Shown one piece after another: positions 55,709-62,558 of a stretch of DNA of 64,000 nucleotides. A program made the position numbers and the translations under genes. The notes below the pieces were generated by a model. The model made no database searches. It saw only the letters and a list, made by a program, of their open reading frames with translations, and was not told the origin of the DNA. The stretch lies in the sequence record OP114734.1; one strand, given 5' to 3'. Position 1 is the first letter of the stretch. The number at the start of each line of letters is the position of its first letter. This DNA is from Escherichia phage vB_ESM-pEJ01.

Positions 55709-55753
55709 TTTATAATCCTCACAAAGCCAGCGATTAAGCTGGCTTTATTTTAG

Positions 55754-56143
55754 TTATACCGGGTCTGGATATACCTTTTTATCGAGTTCCATATGCGGTC
55801 CGTCTTTAAAAGTAACCCAATCAACACCGCAGATAACAGGAACACCCAATTCTCGACCAGCTTGTTTAAATGCATCAGCGATCATGCGGTAATATTTCAT
55901 GTTCCATGTATCCTTATCTTTCGGATACGCTACAACGTCAACCGCGAAACCGTGAAGATGACGAGATTTCATAGTCTTAGATTTACCTTCCGCAACATAT
56001 TTCTTTTGCGTTTCTAGACTACGCACACCTTCCGTAATACCAAAATCGACCGGAGTCAGTTCTAATGCACGATGAACGACTTTTACCAGGTCTGGATGTA
56101 CACCAACAAGCCGATCTTTGCTTCTTTGAGATAATTTAAACAT
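55754..56143 (-). CDS. peptidase M15-like cell-wall hydrolase (candidate endolysin)
   Basis: Zn-binding signature SRHLHGFAVDV and later GPHMELD; 129 aa, no signal peptide. Confidence 0.5.
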   Translation of the reverse strand: MFKLSQRSKDRLVGVHPDLVKVVHRALELTPVDFGITEGVRSLETQKKYVAEGKSKTMKSRHLHGFAVDVVAYPKDKDTWNMKYYRMIADAFKQAGRELGVPVICGVDWVTFKDGPHMELDKKVYPDPV

Positions 56144-56171
56144 TATTCACCCCCTTTGTGAGTGATAATAT

Positions 56172-56363
56172 TTAGATTCCTGTGATCCTGCATAGAGTTC
56201 TTGTATTAGCACCAATCAGGATCGCATTAACAGCAACCATTCCCCAATCAACCCACGGATCATTATAAATGCTAAATCCGTTTGCAAGACCAAATACAAG
56301 CATTCCGGTACACATACTCAGAGCAATAATCAACATCACGGTAAAACCAAATGCAAATCTCAT
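56172..56363 (-). CDS. small membrane protein (63 aa)
   Basis: Two hydrophobic helices. Confidence 0.45.
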   Translation of the reverse strand: MRFAFGFTVMLIIALSMCTGMLVFGLANGFSIYNDPWVDWGMVAVNAILIGANTRTLCRITGI

Positions 56364-56364
56364 A

Positions 56365-56631
56365 TTATTTTCCTTTTCTCTGTTTACGTTTATAAAAGTA
56401 ATACATTACCTCATCTCGTCCGGTGACCCAACATGCTAGGGCGGTAAACAGGTTTACAATTCCCAACACACCTACGGATGCGGCGCTATCAACAGACATA
56501 GGAACAGTAAAGGCCATAGCTAACATAGCAACGCCACAAATGACATTAAGCACCATTATAATAAGACCGAAGAAAACCATTGTCAATCCTCCCAAATAAG
56601 AAAACCAACAATCACGCCAGTGATAAGACAT
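56365..56631 (-). CDS. small membrane protein (88 aa)
   Basis: Hydrophobic helices; basic C-terminus. Confidence 0.45.
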   Translation of the reverse strand: MSYHWRDCWFSYLGGLTMVFFGLIIMVLNVICGVAMLAMAFTVPMSVDSAASVGVLGIVNLFTALACWVTGRDEVMYYFYKRKQRKGK

Positions 56632-56774
56632 GATGCGCCGCTAATAAGACAACCCGCGCCAAGTGATTCCCACCAGATCAGAGAAGCGACAATAACACAG
56701 AATCCCCATACTACCGCAATCACAACATAGGCAAGGGTCGCCCAAAACATATATTTGTTCATAATAAATCCCAT
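56583..56774 (-). CDS. small membrane protein (63 aa)
   Basis: Two hydrophobic helices. Confidence 0.45.
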   Translation of the reverse strand: MGFIMNKYMFWATLAYVVIAVVWGFCVIVASLIWWESLGAGCLISGASCLITGVIVGFLIWED

Positions 56775-56947
56775 TCACCAAACAAATAAGAAAAAAGCCA
56801 TATCAACAGAAACGAGGCAATTGATCCGGCAAGCAAAATGATATTAGAGAATCCGCCGTCTATCCAGGCGACAAAACAGAATACGCCAGTATAGAAGCAT
56901 AAACCCAGTACAAAGCATACTATAAGCAACCATAGACAAAACGCCAT
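56759..56947 (-). CDS. small membrane protein (62 aa)
   Basis: Two hydrophobic helices. Confidence 0.45.
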   Translation of the reverse strand: MAFCLWLLIVCFVLGLCFYTGVFCFVAWIDGGFSNIILLAGSIASFLLIWLFSYLFGEWDLL

Positions 56948-57171
56948 AGAAAGCCCTCCAGTGAGCTAATTTAGTGCGGGTAGTACATTACCCTACCCGT
57001 ATTGTTAATCATCGCAGAGCTTCTTCTAGCGCGATCCAAAACCATCCACAAACAACGCCCATACAGACAGCTACAAGAAGATTCATTCTCTCTTTAGGGA
57101 TCATTGCAATCATAACAACAACCATACAGAAAGCCACATTACCATTGAAGTTAACATTTGTTCAACCATTA

Positions 57172-57510
57172 TCACACCTTTAAAGTCATAGACGCATAAA
57201 CATTAATGCCAGGCCAGTTAGGATCGCAATTATACTCAACATCCCACAAATAAAGCGGTTTAGATGTATCAGCCAAGTTTTTAAAATCTTCTACCCACAT
57301 TTCAAGGCTATATGATGGATAAACTAGGCTATCATATCCGCCGTAACGTTGGCCTACTGGTCGGTCAGTAAAAACTACCTCAAGATCCGGTAATTCTTTT
57401 TCAAGGATAACCGCCAGCGCATAAATCAGACGGTCTTCCTTGTTACGCTGCCGAAGGACCGTTGTCAGTTGGTTTTTCTGGTTCACTAGCAAGCACCTCC
57501 ACATTTTCAC
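57172..57510 (-). CDS. hypothetical protein (possibly 3' part of a frameshifted gene)
   Basis: Overlaps upstream ORF by 68 nt; no ATG after the overlap until residue 71. Confidence 0.35.
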   Translation of the reverse strand: MKMWRCLLVNQKNQLTTVLRQRNKEDRLIYALAVILEKELPDLEVVFTDRPVGQRYGGYDSLVYPSYSLEMWVEDFKNLADTSKPLYLWDVEYNCDPNWPGINVYASMTLKV

Positions 57511-57763
57511 AGAATGAAATTTTCACAGACACAATTTTACCATAAGTGAAGAATGAATATACATTATCGAGATATTCAACGTCACCTACAATCACATCAA
57601 ACTGCGGATCAGCAACCGCCGCAACATATTCTACCAGTTCATCAAGAGAATGCAACTTAATTTCATCAATTCGGCTGTATTTGGTTGCATCTTTAATTTT
57701 AAAACCACGTTCTTTCAGTTTGTCAATCAGAATTTCACGCGGAGTTTCAAACAGTTTGCTCAT
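57443..57763 (-). CDS. hypothetical protein (106 aa)
   Basis: GAGGATTATATTATG initiation region. Confidence 0.5.
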   Translation of the reverse strand: MSKLFETPREILIDKLKERGFKIKDATKYSRIDEIKLHSLDELVEYVAAVADPQFDVIVGDVEYLDNVYSFFTYGKIVSVKISFCENVEVLASEPEKPTDNGPSAA

Positions 57764-57784
57764 AATATAATCCTCACATTAAAT

Positions 57785-57985
57785 CTAAAATTTGTTAACG
57801 ACGAATTGCATAATTAGACTAATCACAAACATTGCAAACCAAGTATAAATGCAACAGATAAAAGCTACATACAATTCAATCTGGTCAGAGAATACACCGG
57901 GTAAAAGCATTAGCAAAATAACAACAGTAAAGACGCTAGCGATACCCGCAACAAAACCAATATCATTTTTACTAATCGTCATCAA
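57785..57985 (-). CDS. small membrane protein (66 aa)
   Basis: Two hydrophobic helices. Confidence 0.45.
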   Translation of the reverse strand: MMTISKNDIGFVAGIASVFTVVILLMLLPGVFSDQIELYVAFICCIYTWFAMFVISLIMQFVVNKF

Positions 57986-58191
57986 GTCACCGTTTTGTAA
58001 AGAAACACAATAAAATCCAAGACAAGAAAGACAGTGTAAATGATCATCGTCAAGACAGTAAACACTGTCAAATTTTCATCGTTAGTTAATTCATAGTCGC
58101 CCATCCATACAATCACAAGATATAGCATTGAAAGAATGGAAGCACCTACGAAGTTAAAAAACATATTCTTGAGCGTCATATTAACAACCAT
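57982..58191 (-). CDS. small membrane protein (69 aa)
   Basis: Two hydrophobic helices. Confidence 0.45.
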   Translation of the reverse strand: MVVNMTLKNMFFNFVGASILSMLYLVIVWMGDYELTNDENLTVFTVLTMIIYTVFLVLDFIVFLYKTVT

Positions 58192-58363
58192 CGCGGCTTA
58201 AGTCAACAGCAATTGCATACAGCATAATGAATATGCTAGCAGATCCGAGAATCAATACACCCTCACATTTTGAAACTCGCTCATCAAAATGTAACATTAT
58301 CCATCCGAGGATGTTAAAGGCGCAGACCGCGCCTATGTTCGCTAACCAATTAATCTTTTTCAT
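58181..58363 (-). CDS. small membrane protein (60 aa)
   Basis: Hydrophobic helices. Confidence 0.45.
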   Translation of the reverse strand: MKKINWLANIGAVCAFNILGWIMLHFDERVSKCEGVLILGSASIFIMLYAIAVDLSRDGC

Positions 58364-58740: not shown

Positions 58741-58769
58741 ATTATGCTATACACCCTCTCGCGTGTCAA
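58741..58769 (-). promoter_or_regulatory. sigma70-type early promoter (-35 TTGACA rc 58764-58769; -10 CATAAT; IR gggtgtat/atacaccc)
   Basis: 17-nt spacer; recurring cassette. Confidence 0.5.
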
Positions 58770-59176: not shown

Positions 59177-59404
59177 TTAAAGTTGTTCTGCAATGTATGC
59201 GGTGCATTTACGGAGTTTAGCCATAGCACTACCTTTCATGTCGCTTGCGCCTACAATGTTCATGATCTCTAAGCGATCAGCCGGATTCAGTCTAGTAGCC
59301 CAGATCTGGTTAGCCAGTTCCATTTTACCCATCTGCGGTTCCATCTCAAACATTTCACGCTCAAAGTCGATAATTTCTTTTGCTGCGTCTTTAAAGTTAA
59401 TCAT
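59177..59404 (-). CDS. hypothetical protein (75 aa)
   Basis: ORF track; SD GGGAGGACCAAAATG. Confidence 0.45.
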   Translation of the reverse strand: MINFKDAAKEIIDFEREMFEMEPQMGKMELANQIWATRLNPADRLEIMNIVGASDMKGSAMAKLRKCTAYIAEQL

Positions 59405-59470
59405 TTTGGTCCTCCCGTTTCGTTGATGGTTGTATTGTAGGGGAGTTATCCTCCCCTGTCAACAATTTTA

Positions 59471-59656
59471 TCAGAAATATGCAATATAGTTTGCCAGTCC
59501 TACAGAGTCATCATTCGGCATTGCTTTTACCGCCAGTTCAAACCCTTCTTCAACTTTCTGTTTAGCGGATTCTTCGTTATAACCCCAGATGACCAGAATA
59601 GCTACTACGTTTTCTTTGCTTACTGCTTTCAGTGCTTTAGTGATGCGACGTGCCAT
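59471..59656 (-). CDS. hypothetical protein (61 aa)
   Basis: Promoter-leader cassette upstream. Confidence 0.45.
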   Translation of the reverse strand: MARRITKALKAVSKENVVAILVIWGYNEESAKQKVEEGFELAVKAMPNDDSVGLANYIAYF

Positions 59657-59702
59657 AATTTGATTCTCCGTTTAAGAAAGTGTGTTTCGTTTCGATGGGT
59701 GT

Positions 59703-59731
59703 ATTATGCTATAGGCGTGATCTGGTGTCAA
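59703..59731 (-). promoter_or_regulatory. sigma70-type early promoter (-35 TTGACA rc 59726-59731; -10 CATAAT)
   Basis: 17-nt spacer; recurring cassette. Confidence 0.5.
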
Positions 59732-59763
59732 CAACTTTTTTAAAAAATTTTAGGCAATAAAAA

Positions 59764-59785
59764 AGCCACTCCGAAGAGTGGCTTA
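59764..59785 (-). terminator. rho-independent terminator
   Basis: Hairpin agccactc-cgaa-gagtggct followed on minus transcript by UUUUUUAUU. Confidence 0.5.
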
Positions 59786-59786
59786 T

Positions 59787-59932
59787 AGGGAAGGTAGCGA
59801 ATCTTCCTTGTCTCCAACCTGCTAGCGGCCTAGCAAGTGAATGCTTTAGCGTACCGGATCACCCCATACGCTGTAATAAATGCGGCTAGGTGACGTCCAA
59901 ATCATTCTAACCGCGCTGTCTTTAGTTCACTA
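59787..59932 (-). ncRNA. candidate structured non-coding RNA / long 3' UTR (about 145 nt between stop codon and terminator)
   Basis: Several short hairpins (ggaag/cttcc, gctag/ctagc, gcgta/tacgc, gcggctag/ctaaccgc); no ORF; no tRNA cloverleaf found. Confidence 0.25.
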
Positions 59933-60151
59933 TTATTTATATCGCTTTCTCTCGCGACGTTTTTGATCTTCTTCCTTGATAGAGTTAAACGCATCAAAAA
60001 GACACATGACACTGATAATGAACATAACCGTATTTTCTACGATATCCCACGGCTTCGCATCAGTACAGATCCCCCAAACGGTAAGAAATGCAAATAGTGC
60101 AGAAGAGATCACAAGCATGATACTTGCTAAGATATAAAAAGTCATTTTCAT
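59933..60151 (-). CDS. small membrane protein (72 aa)
   Basis: Hydrophobic helices; basic C-terminus. Confidence 0.45.
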   Translation of the reverse strand: MKMTFYILASIMLVISSALFAFLTVWGICTDAKPWDIVENTVMFIISVMCLFDAFNSIKEEDQKRRERKRYK

Positions 60152-60342
60152 GGTTTTACCTCAATTCTTCGATATTCATCACACATCCACGCAGTAAGCA
60201 AGAATCCCAGCACATAAGCAACAAAATACGTTAATGCTTCTTCTGGTTTCGTGCTATGTATCATCAGTAAACCAGCGAGAACGGTCTTAACAATTACATT
60301 TAAAATAACTAGCCACGCAAATAATTTCATCGTTTGCCCCAT
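60148..60342 (-). CDS. small membrane protein (64 aa)
   Basis: Hydrophobic helices. Confidence 0.45.
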   Translation of the reverse strand: MGQTMKLFAWLVILNVIVKTVLAGLLMIHSTKPEEALTYFVAYVLGFLLTAWMCDEYRRIEVKP

Positions 60343-60566
60343 TTCGGTCGAGTCTTTTCAAACTTATACATTCCGTAACAATCTCGAATCATCCACGTAA
60401 CAAGAGCACCAGTCAACACAGACAATACACAGAAGAAGTAAAACGGTCCGGTTGCATTATCAACATGAGCAAGCCATGTAAAGAAAACACATGCAAGGAA
60501 CGTGAAGAACATCATAAAGCACAAGAAAGCAAAATATTTTATACTACTCATAGCGCCACCATACAA
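60327..60566 (-). CDS. small membrane protein (79 aa)
   Basis: Hydrophobic helices. Confidence 0.45.
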   Translation of the reverse strand: MYGGAMSSIKYFAFLCFMMFFTFLACVFFTWLAHVDNATGPFYFFCVLSVLTGALVTWMIRDCYGMYKFEKTRPKWGKR

Positions 60567-60654
60567 CAGATCATAAGAAACCCCAACGCAATAAGAATTG
60601 CGTCAAATTTAGTGAACTCAGGTCCACCTATCAACATCATTCGTTCTATTTCGT

Positions 60655-60897
60655 TCATAGCGTACAAAGCCATTTAAAAGCACCACATAAAGCGAGCAGA
60701 ATACTAGGTATAAACGAGATCATAACAAGTTTGCAAAAATCATCTAAGGTAACGCCGGAATAGCTACCTACTGTAACAACACCGATCATCAGACACAGAA
60801 AGAAAACAAATGCAACCAGAAACAAAGTATTGCTAAACAGTTTAGTGATCATTAGACACCCCACGACGATCAATTTCAAAAACTTTTTTACCATCAA
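60655..60897 (-). CDS. small membrane protein (start uncertain)
   Basis: Hydrophobic helices; overlaps upstream ORF by 56 nt. Confidence 0.4.
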   Translation of the reverse strand: MMVKKFLKLIVVGCLMITKLFSNTLFLVAFVFFLCLMIGVVTVGSYSGVTLDDFCKLVMISFIPSILLALCGAFKWLCTL

Positions 60898-61045
60898 CGA
60901 AGCATGTCACAACTGCCTCGTTGACTTCCGCAAATTGTTGTGTTACCCACTTAAGGTCAGAGCGAAACAATGTTCTATTAATAACAAATGTTTTACCGCT
61001 CTTATCCTTACCCATAAATTTTGCTTTAACCATATCCAATTCCAT
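60842..61045 (-). CDS. possible Dmd-like antitoxin (67 aa)
   Basis: MELDMVKAKFMG...QQFAEVNEAVVTCFVDGKKVFEIDRRG resembles my recollection of T4 Dmd (not verifiable here); not in the T4 dmd position. Confidence 0.35.
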   Translation of the reverse strand: MELDMVKAKFMGKDKSGKTFVINRTLFRSDLKWVTQQFAEVNEAVVTCFVDGKKVFEIDRRGVSNDH

Positions 61046-61054
61046 ATTATCACC

Positions 61055-61213
61055 TTATTTGCTAATCGCTAAACCCAATCCGAAGAGAGCACCCGATGCT
61101 ACAGTATACCCGAAAGTTTCAAATGCAGTAAAGATATCTAAGCCACCAGCTAACAGAGTTGCAGTAAACAGAGTACCAGCTACGAACATAAAAGTTTTAC
61201 CGATGAATTTCAT
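61055..61213 (-). CDS. small membrane protein (52 aa), not in ORF track
   Basis: MKFIGKTFMFVAGTLFTATLLAGGLDIFTAFETFGYTVASGALFGLGLAISK; AGGAGAATCAAAATG initiation region and promoter directly upstream. Confidence 0.5.
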   Translation of the reverse strand: MKFIGKTFMFVAGTLFTATLLAGGLDIFTAFETFGYTVASGALFGLGLAISK

Positions 61214-61244
61214 TTTGATTCTCCTTTCGTTTGTTTGTGGGGGT

Positions 61245-61273
61245 ATCTTACTACCCCCGTTTCATGTTGTCAA
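61245..61273 (-). promoter_or_regulatory. sigma70-type early promoter (-35 TTGACA rc 61268-61273; -10 TAAGAT; IR gggggta/taccccc)
   Basis: 17-nt spacer; IR 61240-61259. Confidence 0.45.
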
Positions 61274-61279
61274 CTATTT

Positions 61280-61654
61280 TTAAGAATATTTTACTTCGTC
61301 TACAATGTCTTTCATGACATTGATTTCCATTCCGGTCAGAACACGTTGGAACATGTGCTGCACATACGCTTTCAGGTATTCATTTGATGGCTTACTATCG
61401 AAAGTCTTTTTAGTGTAGTAGTCATCACCGAAAGCTACTGTAATTACATTTTCGTCGTCGCTCCAAGCGATATAAGCAAATTTGCCGTTATCCCAGAAGC
61501 GAGCACTAATTGCTACTTTTGTTGAATCGAATCCTACTTCGCTGTGAGATTCAAGAACTACTTGTGTGCCAGTTTCTTTATGAATGTAGTAGCGGGATAC
61601 TAAGTCAAAGTTACGGGTGTAGTGACATTCGAATTTATCTTTAAACATCATCAT
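61280..61654 (-). CDS. hypothetical protein (124 aa)
   Basis: Promoter-leader cassette upstream. Confidence 0.5.
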   Translation of the reverse strand: MMMFKDKFECHYTRNFDLVSRYYIHKETGTQVVLESHSEVGFDSTKVAISARFWDNGKFAYIAWSDDENVITVAFGDDYYTKKTFDSKPSNEYLKAYVQHMFQRVLTGMEINVMKDIVDEVKYS

Positions 61655-61692
61655 TTTTGATTCTCCTAAGTGTGTTTCGTTTCGATGTGTGC

Positions 61693-61721
61693 ATTATGCT
61701 ATAGTCGTTTATGGTTGTCAA
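61693..61721 (-). promoter_or_regulatory. sigma70-type early promoter (-35 TTGACA rc 61716-61721; -10 CATAAT)
   Basis: 17-nt spacer; recurring cassette. Confidence 0.5.
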
Positions 61722-61738
61722 CACATAAAAACAAAAAA

Positions 61739-61757
61739 CCCCGAAAAATTTTCGGGG
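61739..61757 (-). terminator. rho-independent terminator 3' of the 2H phosphoesterase gene
   Basis: Hairpin ccccgaaaa/ttttcgggg followed on minus transcript by UUUUUUGUUUUU. Confidence 0.5.
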
Positions 61758-61764
61758 TATAAAA

Positions 61765-62235
61765 TTACAGTTTGGACGTCCACTCCAGGTCTAGATCTTC
61801 GACATACTCATGAGATCGGACAATCTCTAAATCGAACTCTAGGTCAGTGCCAAATTTACGCGCACCAACATCATAAGAAAGCGTGATATGCGGTACATAT
61901 TCAGGATAATCCCACGTCGCGCCTAAAGCAGTGCCTATATCGTGTCTGAATTGCATGTAGTCGCTTTCAAATGCCAACACAAGCGCATTAGTACCGGATT
62001 GAGTTTCAAACACTTTAAGATGGCATAGAGAGCCTAAGAACTTTTCACCCTCTTCTGGTATAAACGGAACATAGACACGAGAATATAAGATAGTGCTATG
62101 CAGTTTATCACGAGGAACGGCATTAGGCAGATCGTAGAACTCCTGCAATTTTTCAATGCGGTCTAGTGTATCCTCAGTGAATTTAACCGCCGCATATGTA
62201 CCTTTAACGGATTCTCTAAACGGGGTCATAATCAA
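61765..62235 (-). CDS. 2H phosphoesterase, Acb1-like (T4 57B position; candidate anti-CBASS cyclic-nucleotide phosphodiesterase)
   Basis: Two H-x-T/S motifs (HSTILYS and HITLSYD) about 90 aa apart; about 155 aa; adjacent to 57A-like gene. Confidence 0.55.
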   Translation of the reverse strand: MIMTPFRESVKGTYAAVKFTEDTLDRIEKLQEFYDLPNAVPRDKLHSTILYSRVYVPFIPEEGEKFLGSLCHLKVFETQSGTNALVLAFESDYMQFRHDIGTALGATWDYPEYVPHITLSYDVGARKFGTDLEFDLEIVRSHEYVEDLDLEWTSKL

Positions 62236-62558
62236 GCCTCCGTGATCAGTTCTACTTCCTCTTCTGCGTCTTCCTCTTCTGCGTCTTCCTCTTCTGCGTC
62301 TTCCTCTTCTGCGTCTTCCTCTTCTGCGTCTTCCGCTGCTTCGTCTTTAGGGAGAAGTGCTTTCACTTCTTCGACAATAGCATCAAGGGAAACAGTGCCG
62401 TTTTCGTCTGGCTGAATACCAAGAATGCGTACCAGTTCCATCAATACACGCTCACGATCTTTCAGTTGGCCTTCTAAGAATGCGGCCTTTTCTTGAGTGT
62501 CAAACAGACGTACTTTCAGGACATTAATCATTTGTTCATGCTGATTGGACATATTCAC
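62232..62558 (-). CDS. 57A: gp57A-like tail-fibre assembly chaperone with acidic repeat tail
   Basis: N-terminal coiled-coil; position upstream of gene 1 as in T4; C-terminal (DAEEE)n encoded by 15-nt tandem repeat. Confidence 0.55.
   Translation of the reverse strand: MNMSNQHEQMINVLKVRLFDTQEKAAFLEGQLKDRERVLMELVRILGIQPDENGTVSLDAIVEEVKALLPKDEAAEDAEEEDAEEEDAEEEDAEEEDAEEEVELITEA
62261..62335 (-). repeat. 15-nt tandem repeat cttctgcgtcttcct x about 5 (codes EDAEE repeats)
   Basis: Direct tandem copies at 62261, 62276, 62291, 62306, 62321. Confidence 0.85.

Follow-up and report, generated by a model that had tools for sequence, protein, structure and literature searches.

The 64,000-nt window of Escherichia phage vB_ESM-pEJ01 (OP114734.1) that we analysed contains, at positions 59933-61213, a run of small hydrophobic open reading frames (ORFs) surrounding a 67-aa ORF that encodes a homologue of the T4 protein Dmd. 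The region from 59400 to 61700 showed 90-98% nucleotide identity to 58 phage records, all of them Krischvirus (RB49, phi1, JSE, GEC-3S and relatives), and on this sequence evidence the source phage is a Krischvirus, an RB49-like, T4-type coliphage of the Straboviridae. The minus strand carries every gene within 58.3-62.6 kb, and matches to the promoter pattern TTGACA-N16-18-xAxxAT in the window were likewise found on the minus strand only (23, against none on the plus strand). The operon aligned to the 58 Krischvirus records in one piece from end to end; an insertion of approximately 680 bp in the relatives, suggested by two-piece matches, proved to be an artefact of joined repeated promoter-early stem-loop (PeSL) sequences. 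Read 5′ to 3′ on the minus strand, the module consists of ORF G, ORF F, dmd and ORFs E, D, C, B and A, and it is complete and constant in gene order in 58/58 Krischvirus records. The same eight ORFs were present in the same order in a divergent IMG/VR contig (L016), at nucleotide identities of 79-87% in A, B, D, E, F and dmd (79% in ORF A) and 93% in C.

All features of the module lie on the minus strand. Gene 57B (acb1) is followed by a predicted terminator at 61738-61758 (9-bp stem with five GC pairs, then a T-run), which forms the stem-loop of an upstream PeSL cassette. The promoter of this cassette, a sigma-70-type match at 61693-61721 (TTGACA-N17-CATAAT, 11/12 consensus positions), is the first of the module and precedes its first gene, ORF G (61280-61654; RB49ORF125c, phrog_15253), which encodes a soluble protein of 124 aa. 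A second, internal PeSL-type promoter element spans 61237-61273, with TTGACA-N17-TAAGAT at 61273-61245 (10/12 consensus) and a GGGGGTA/TACCCCC stem-loop (61237-61260) that overlaps its -10 box. It is followed by ORF F (61055-61213; 52 aa, glycine-rich and hydrophobic, RB49ORF124c, phrog_16462), dmd (60842-61045; 67 aa), ORF E (60655-60852; 65 aa, phrog_17225), ORF D (60548-60658; 36 aa, matching the 36-aa profile phrog_15282), ORF C (60327-60551; 74 aa, phrog_15290), ORF B (60148-60330; 60 aa, matching the 60-aa profile phrog_15717) and ORF A (59933-60151; 72 aa, phrog_15168). Beyond ORF A lies a GC-rich, structured non-coding 3′ region of 148 nt with four predicted hairpins (59785-59932), which ends at the operon terminator (59763-59784; 9-bp stem, UUCG loop, then a T-run). 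This terminator, the stem-loop of a downstream PeSL cassette, is essentially invariant in the relatives, its single variable column being the length of the T-run. The downstream PeSL promoter (59703-59731; TTGACA-N17-CATAAT, 11/12 consensus) would drive the gene at 59656-59471 and forms the right-hand edge of the module. As far as consensus matches can tell, dmd has two near-consensus sigma-70 promoters upstream (61721-61693 and 61273-61245) and no terminator ahead of the one at 59784-59763. We are confident that the best overall explanation of the locus is an early Krischvirus operon of approximately 2 kb, situated on the minus strand of a hyperplastic region, that carries a Dmd homologue together with six membrane-protein genes.

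The 67-aa protein genuinely belongs to the Dmd family. The Pfam profile PF17587 (Dmd) matched it over profile positions 2-60 of 60 with an E value of 7.8e-15 and 55.4 bits, against a gathering score of 27 bits, and PHROG 2102 ("Dmd discriminator of mRNA degradation") matched with an E value of 1e-30. Among proteins of known structure, T4 Dmd from its complex with LsoA (PDB 5hy3_B) aligned over residues 4-62 (E 1.9e-12), and the RB69 Dmd (PDB 5i8j) gave an E value of 1.8e-9. The initial annotation had suggested a resemblance of 60842-61045 to T4 Dmd; real alignments, including the one to T4 Dmd from the LsoA complex, are significant and confirm it. All ten columns that are invariant across a 45-sequence family alignment are kept (F10, D30, Q37, A39, E40, N42, V46, V55, E57 and D59). 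An AlphaFold2 model built from the same alignment has a mean predicted local distance difference test score (pLDDT) of 91 and a beta-beta-alpha-beta-beta arrangement, and in a Foldseek search it superposed on 5hy3_B with a root-mean-square deviation (rmsd) of 0.4 Å and a template-modelling score of 0.97, a fit that is not independent evidence of identity because the training of AlphaFold included the PDB. The same search returned 5i8j at an rmsd of 1.1 Å and no further PDB entry better than E 0.17. The gene is under purifying selection, with a ratio of nonsynonymous to synonymous polymorphism (pN/pS) of 0.18 over codons 1-62; this ratio, and the openness of reading frames, were compared across 11 genomes.

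T4 Dmd (gene 61.5; PF17587; 5HY3 chain B) and the Krischvirus protein are alike in size, with 60 residues in the former and a 62-residue core in the latter, and they have in common the beta-beta-alpha-beta-beta fold, the family-invariant residues and a helix motif Q-(F/Y)-A-E-V-N. Each gene also belongs to a T4-type coliphage and has early sigma-70-type promoters nearby, which for the Krischvirus gene are predicted by consensus match. The Krischvirus protein differs from T4 Dmd in its sequence, in having a lysine in place of the T4-type tryptophan after G12, and in a variable C-terminal tail of 2-5 residues. The near-invariant D52 of the family is a glycine in this phage and an aspartate in most Krischviruses, and residues 51-52 vary between members of the genus (DG, DD, CD or GD). 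A G-run near the 3′ end of dmd (60853-60858) carries a GGGG/GGGGG indel among Krischviruses, which decides whether Dmd ends in ...RRGVSNDH (67 aa) or in ...RRGGV (64 aa) and also turns the junction between dmd and ORF E from an 11-nt overlap into a short stop/start overlap. The RB49 dmd (AAQ15378, AY343333) and those of 57 other Krischvirus records are the same gene in the same operon, at 93-98% nucleotide identity over the locus and flanked by RB49ORF118c-125c, and the present phage shows only allelic differences from them, for example at Dmd residues 6, 51 and 52 and in the allele class of ORF E.

In T4, Dmd is made early and acts directly on two HEPN endoribonuclease toxins, RnlA from the E. 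coli K-12 prophage CP4-57 and LsoA from the O157 plasmid pOSAK1, which it inhibits once their unstable antitoxins have been lost with host shut-off. Its site on the toxin is the groove that the NRD/TBP2 domain forms with the Dmd-binding/HEPN domain (PMC8266594, PMC5308261, PMC9391042). By homology, the Krischvirus Dmd probably inhibits RnlA/LsoA-type toxins as well. It would be made early from the sigma-70 promoters; once the labile antitoxins RnlB and LsoB had decayed after host shut-off, it would form a 1:1 complex with an RnlA/LsoA-type HEPN RNase toxin, occupying the groove that separates the NRD from the Dmd-binding/HEPN domain, and cleavage of middle and late phage mRNAs would be blocked. 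Krischviruses are routinely propagated on K-12 MG1655, a strain that carries rnlAB (PMC11990801), which lends circumstantial support to a need for Dmd on this host.

The position of the gene differs from that in T4, where the order is 41-dmd-61.4(tifA)-sp-61.2-61.1-61. Dhakavirus JS10 and IME341 and the phage Mizar also retain dmd between genes 41 and 61, a site that is typical of Tevenvirinae although it does not define the Dmd family. The corresponding interval of RB49 holds dc2, dc1, 61.1 and two ORFans, with dmd absent, and the RB49 order at approximately 60 kb is 57A-57B-ORF125c-ORF124c-dmd-ORF122c..118c-ORF117c...55.3. The gene thus lies between 57B and 55.3, approximately 46 kb from its T4-type position and 0.7 kb downstream of 57B (acb1), and the displacement from the site between genes 61 and 41 that the initial annotation had proposed is real. 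In a tblastn search of 50,697 phage records, 796 contained a Dmd locus, one per genome; 58 of these were Krischvirus, and the remaining 738 were T-even-type phages with less than 60% identity. Both the identity of dmd and its displacement are correct yet already known from public annotation, given that the RB49 record AY343333 labels the gene "dmd ... T4 gene synonym: 61.5" and most other Krischvirus records examined do likewise. In RB49 and most of these records the product is named "discriminator of mRNA degradation". Like the 41-61 counter-defence cluster of T4 (dmd, tifA/61.4, sp and adfA/61.2), the Krischvirus locus has dmd downstream of predicted early promoters, where it would be co-transcribed with small accessory genes, and another anti-defence gene, acb1, close by; unlike the T4 cluster, it lacks tifA, sp and adfA beside dmd and has six genus-specific membrane proteins and acb1 as neighbours.

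The small hydrophobic ORFs around dmd were found where the initial annotation had placed them, but there are six rather than five. Its boundary at 60897 corresponds to a TTG start of the longest possible ORF E; the real start is the ATG at 60852, because with the GGGG/GGGGG indel of JSE-type genomes no in-frame start remains ahead of MITKLF, and this position agrees with both the start of the PHROG profile and the RB49 annotation. ORF F does have the promoter of its own (TTGACA-N17-TAAGAT, 61273-61245) and the strong Shine-Dalgarno sequence (AAGGAG, 7 nt before the ATG) previously attributed to it, but it is not unannotated in the relatives, where it appears as RB49ORF124c in RB49 and as a "putative membrane protein" in W115, a record in which four of the small ORFs bear that label. 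From Kyte-Doolittle windows we predicted two transmembrane (TM) segments each in A, B, C and E, a single C-terminal segment in D, and in F one clear segment plus a weaker, glycine-rich second one; ORF C ends in a basic C-terminal tail and ORF A in a highly charged one. The ORFs are tightly joined, with ATGA stop/start overlaps at four junctions (E/D, D/C, C/B and B/A) and the ATG of ORF E lying 11 nt inside the 3′ end of dmd. All six were open in the 11 genomes and in contig L016, with pN/pS values of 0.07 (F), 0.53 (E), 0.35 (D), 0.08 (C), 0.22 (B) and 0.06 (A); variation in A, C and F fell mostly at third codon positions, and ORF E, which occurs in two allele classes, was the fastest-evolving gene of the operon. 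Each matched a full-length PHROG profile, in every case a self-family listed with function unknown. By these sequence criteria the six ORFs are real genes for proteins predicted to span the membrane once or twice.

They are also, so far as database searches reach, confined to Krischvirus. A concatenated tblastn query (F, E, D, C, B, A) found only the 58 Krischvirus records among 50,697, and a single-sequence search of 1.84 billion representative proteins with ORF A returned only its own cluster. Searches of Pfam, PHROGs and NCBIfam with ORFs A-F gave self-families or sub-threshold noise and no known family. A first cluster of approximately nine further small hydrophobic ORFs (41-71 aa) lies downstream in the direction of transcription, on the minus strand at 55750-58363. 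Smith-Waterman comparisons against shuffled sequences for the 15 small ORFs of both clusters yielded no evidence of paralogy, either of the first-cluster ORFs to those of the dmd operon or among one another (maximum z 3.9 over 105 pairs).

A 56-nt direct repeat (59678-59733 and 61668-61723; 84% identity, 1990 bp apart) flanks the module on both sides, each copy being part of a terminator/promoter/leader cassette. PeSL elements from RB49 and phi1 have been shown to act as both promoters and terminators, and it was proposed that through them ORFan cassettes in hyperplastic regions are inserted, are deleted and form mini-circles (Arbiol et al. 2010, PMC2839356; Comeau et al. 2014, PMC4122927). 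Both flanks of the dmd module show the features of a PeSL-bounded cassette, namely a near-consensus promoter, a stem-loop, a conserved leader, a Shine-Dalgarno sequence and a setting in an ORFan hyperplastic region, and the internal promoter before ORF F, with a G-run/C-run stem-loop across its -10 box, is of a class published for RB49 and phi1 (PMC2839356). The leader motif of the repeat is found again at further early promoters, such as those at 58769, 47573 and 46329. The ORFan cassettes of RB49 and phi1 likewise have near-consensus TTGACA-N17 promoters, adjacent or overlapping stem-loops, conserved leaders and Shine-Dalgarno sequences; unlike those cassettes, which hold 1-2 ORFans, the dmd module comprises eight genes, includes one of known function and is fixed in 58 genomes. 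The flanking repeats and the published mechanism suggest that the module arrived here, or that dmd quit the 41-61 interval, through recombination between promoter/stem-loop cassettes, and PeSL-mediated shuffling would be the most economical explanation of the relocation. Weighing against membership of the module in the PeSL-cassette class, it showed no presence/absence polymorphism among the 58 Krischvirus records; because it is fixed in 58/58 genomes and no polymorphism documents the event, we infer the shuffling rather than observe it.

The first gene after each PeSL promoter has GGAG within its Shine-Dalgarno sequence, on the minus strand at 61222-61225 (ORF F), 61664-61667 (ORF G) and approximately 59666-59669 (the gene starting at 59656), and the Shine-Dalgarno sequence of dmd, AAGGTG, is without it. 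GGAG is the motif cleaved by the phage RegB endoribonuclease, and the pattern could allow a differential shut-off of promoter-proximal genes.

The 148 nt that run from the end of ORF A to the operon terminator are unannotated, hold no credible ORF and have a GC content of 48.6%, against 40% for the window. Together with the terminator, the four predicted hairpins of this 3′ element give a minimum free energy of -64.7 kcal/mol (z -4.5 against shuffled sequences). Across the 11 genomes 7.4% of its columns were variable, whereas in the adjacent genes approximately 20% of third codon positions were; the differences, 1-2-nt indels among them, are concentrated towards the apex of hairpin 2. In contig L016 the element is 95% identical (ORF A, 79%) and nearly identical outside hairpin 2, in which the stem AGCGUA/UACGCU is replaced by GACGUA/UACGUU through one compensatory G-C to A-U change and one A-U to G-U change. 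Scans of IMG/VR and metagenomes recovered only near-identical Krischvirus-like contigs and so had little power to detect covariation. By sequence comparison, the evidence for a constrained element is strong as regards conservation and thin as regards covariation.

Several candidate identities for the 3′ element were considered. A peptide was rejected, as the frame of its 19-codon ATG ORF is broken in the relatives by the hairpin 2 indels. Nothing in Rfam, searched at gathering and at E-value thresholds, reached the gathering score, the sub-threshold matches being driven by the terminator, and ARAGORN reported no tRNA or tmRNA. No sequence similarity was seen to the T4 stable RNAs rnaC and rnaD, which lie downstream of 57B in T4, and a host origin was rejected after blastn found no match in 5,426 E. 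coli genomes; nor did any come from 185,579 GTDB species genomes, which were scanned twice for exact patterns. The element may be a stable 3′-derived RNA, an mRNA-stabilising structure or a site acting at the DNA level. We put forward only tentatively, as something we consider improbable, that it is an undescribed functional phage RNA (a stable 3′-derived small RNA or an mRNA-protecting one) and forms, with the six membrane proteins, Dmd and Acb1, a Krischvirus-specific counter-defence or host-takeover island.

Upstream of the module, 57B (61765-62235, minus strand) encodes Acb1, an anti-CBASS cyclic-nucleotide phosphodiesterase (PDB 7t26, E 1.5e-43), so that two counter-defence genes, acb1 and dmd, lie within 1.4 kb. 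ORF G, between them, is a candidate in this counter-defence neighbourhood. It is strongly constrained (pN/pS 0.05) and is represented by only three clusters in a database of 5.8 billion proteins; no PDB match was found and the best Pfam match, Gp30.7, was sub-threshold (E 0.0036). Its AlphaFold model is of low confidence (pLDDT 68), and a fold search of BFVD with this model returned only itself and noise. Further upstream, the 57A gene (62232-62558, minus strand) carries 6.2 tandem copies of a 15-nt unit at 62255-62347 (96% matches), which encode an acidic EEDAE repeat near the C-terminus of the tail-fibre chaperone gp57A; RB49 (86 aa) and contig L016 have a shorter repeat or none.

A number of points weigh against reading the locus as an early operon built around an antitoxin of T4 specificity. 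Identity to T4 Dmd is just 45%, and the T4-type segment G-W-F-(E/K)-N is G-K-D-K in the Krischvirus protein, so its toxin range could differ; our literature search found no paper in which a Krischvirus Dmd had been tested experimentally. The promoters and terminators of the module are predicted, by consensus match, and it is predicted co-transcription only that ties the membrane ORFs to the function of Dmd, since no homology in Pfam, PHROGs or NCBIfam backs any function for them. The same divergence of Dmd, its polymorphism at residues 51-52 and its different genomic neighbourhood would fit a Dmd-fold protein that has been retargeted to a different toxin, to a different subset of the RnlA family or to another role in RNA decay. 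We regard retargeting as distinctly unlikely, however, given that the ten family-invariant residues and the predicted fold are kept, that selection on the gene is purifying and that the hosts, K-12 and O157, are strains known to carry RnlAB and LsoAB. That the small hydrophobic ORFs are chance ORFs might be supposed from their length alone (36-74 aa), as mechanical ORF lists hold many of that kind, but this is effectively refuted by their remaining open in 11 genomes and in a contig at 79-87% nucleotide identity, by third-position variation in A, C and F (pN/pS 0.06-0.08), by the four precise ATGA overlaps and by a full-length PHROG match for each.

What the membrane proteins do admits of more than one answer. 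The constant gene order in 58/58 genomes, the translational coupling (including the 11-nt overlap of dmd and E), the adjoining acb1 and the fast evolution of ORF E (pN/pS 0.53) could all be expected if the six proteins and Dmd formed a single counter-defence unit, for example one that neutralises membrane-acting abortive-infection effectors or in which the membrane proteins anchor or regulate Dmd; in T4, moreover, dmd clusters with the counter-defence genes tifA and adfA beside spackle, which encodes a periplasmic protein of superinfection immunity. We nevertheless think such a unit quite unlikely, as T4 Dmd works alone as a soluble protein of 60 aa, none of the six ORFs stands beside dmd in the 738 other dmd-carrying phage records, and tight packing with gene overlaps is usual in T4-type early regions. 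It is also possible, though unlikely, that the small two-TM proteins act in lysis timing or superinfection exclusion, as holin/antiholin-like or Imm/Sp-like proteins. Two TM segments followed by a charged C-terminal tail, as in A, B and C, are a class II holin-like architecture, ORF C has a sub-threshold match to Phage_holin_3_6 (E 0.049), and Imm and Sp are encoded in T4 early regions, with imm and sp beside dmd in the phage Mizar. Such an architecture is, however, weak evidence for hydrophobic proteins of 60-75 aa; all hits in Pfam, PHROGs and NCBIfam stayed below threshold, the Imm and Sp PHROGs gave no match, and early sigma-70 promoters imply the wrong timing for a holin. For ORF C itself the holin assignment was rejected, the match scoring 14 bits against a cut-off of 28.4. 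Within a predicted early operon carrying dmd, the six proteins are most likely early accessory "host-takeover" proteins of the inner membrane that would serve in exclusion, in anti-defence or in modulating the envelope. Context, not homology, prompts this guess: such a role is suggested by guilt by association, through the predicted early co-transcription with dmd, the presence of acb1 0.7 kb away and the position of T4 dmd beside tifA and adfA.

Dmd is the classic phage antitoxin that disarms host toxin-antitoxin defence (RnlAB, LsoAB), and its identification here is not new, as RB49-type genomes have been annotated in this way since their first release. The locus does document an anti-defence gene that has moved between hyperplastic regions of T4-type genomes and is flanked by the proposed PeSL drivers of such movement. 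The leads worth following are the conserved 3′ element and the six membrane proteins encoded beside two anti-defence genes; conserved as they are and next to dmd and acb1, these proteins are reasonable candidates for anti-defence or exclusion screens.

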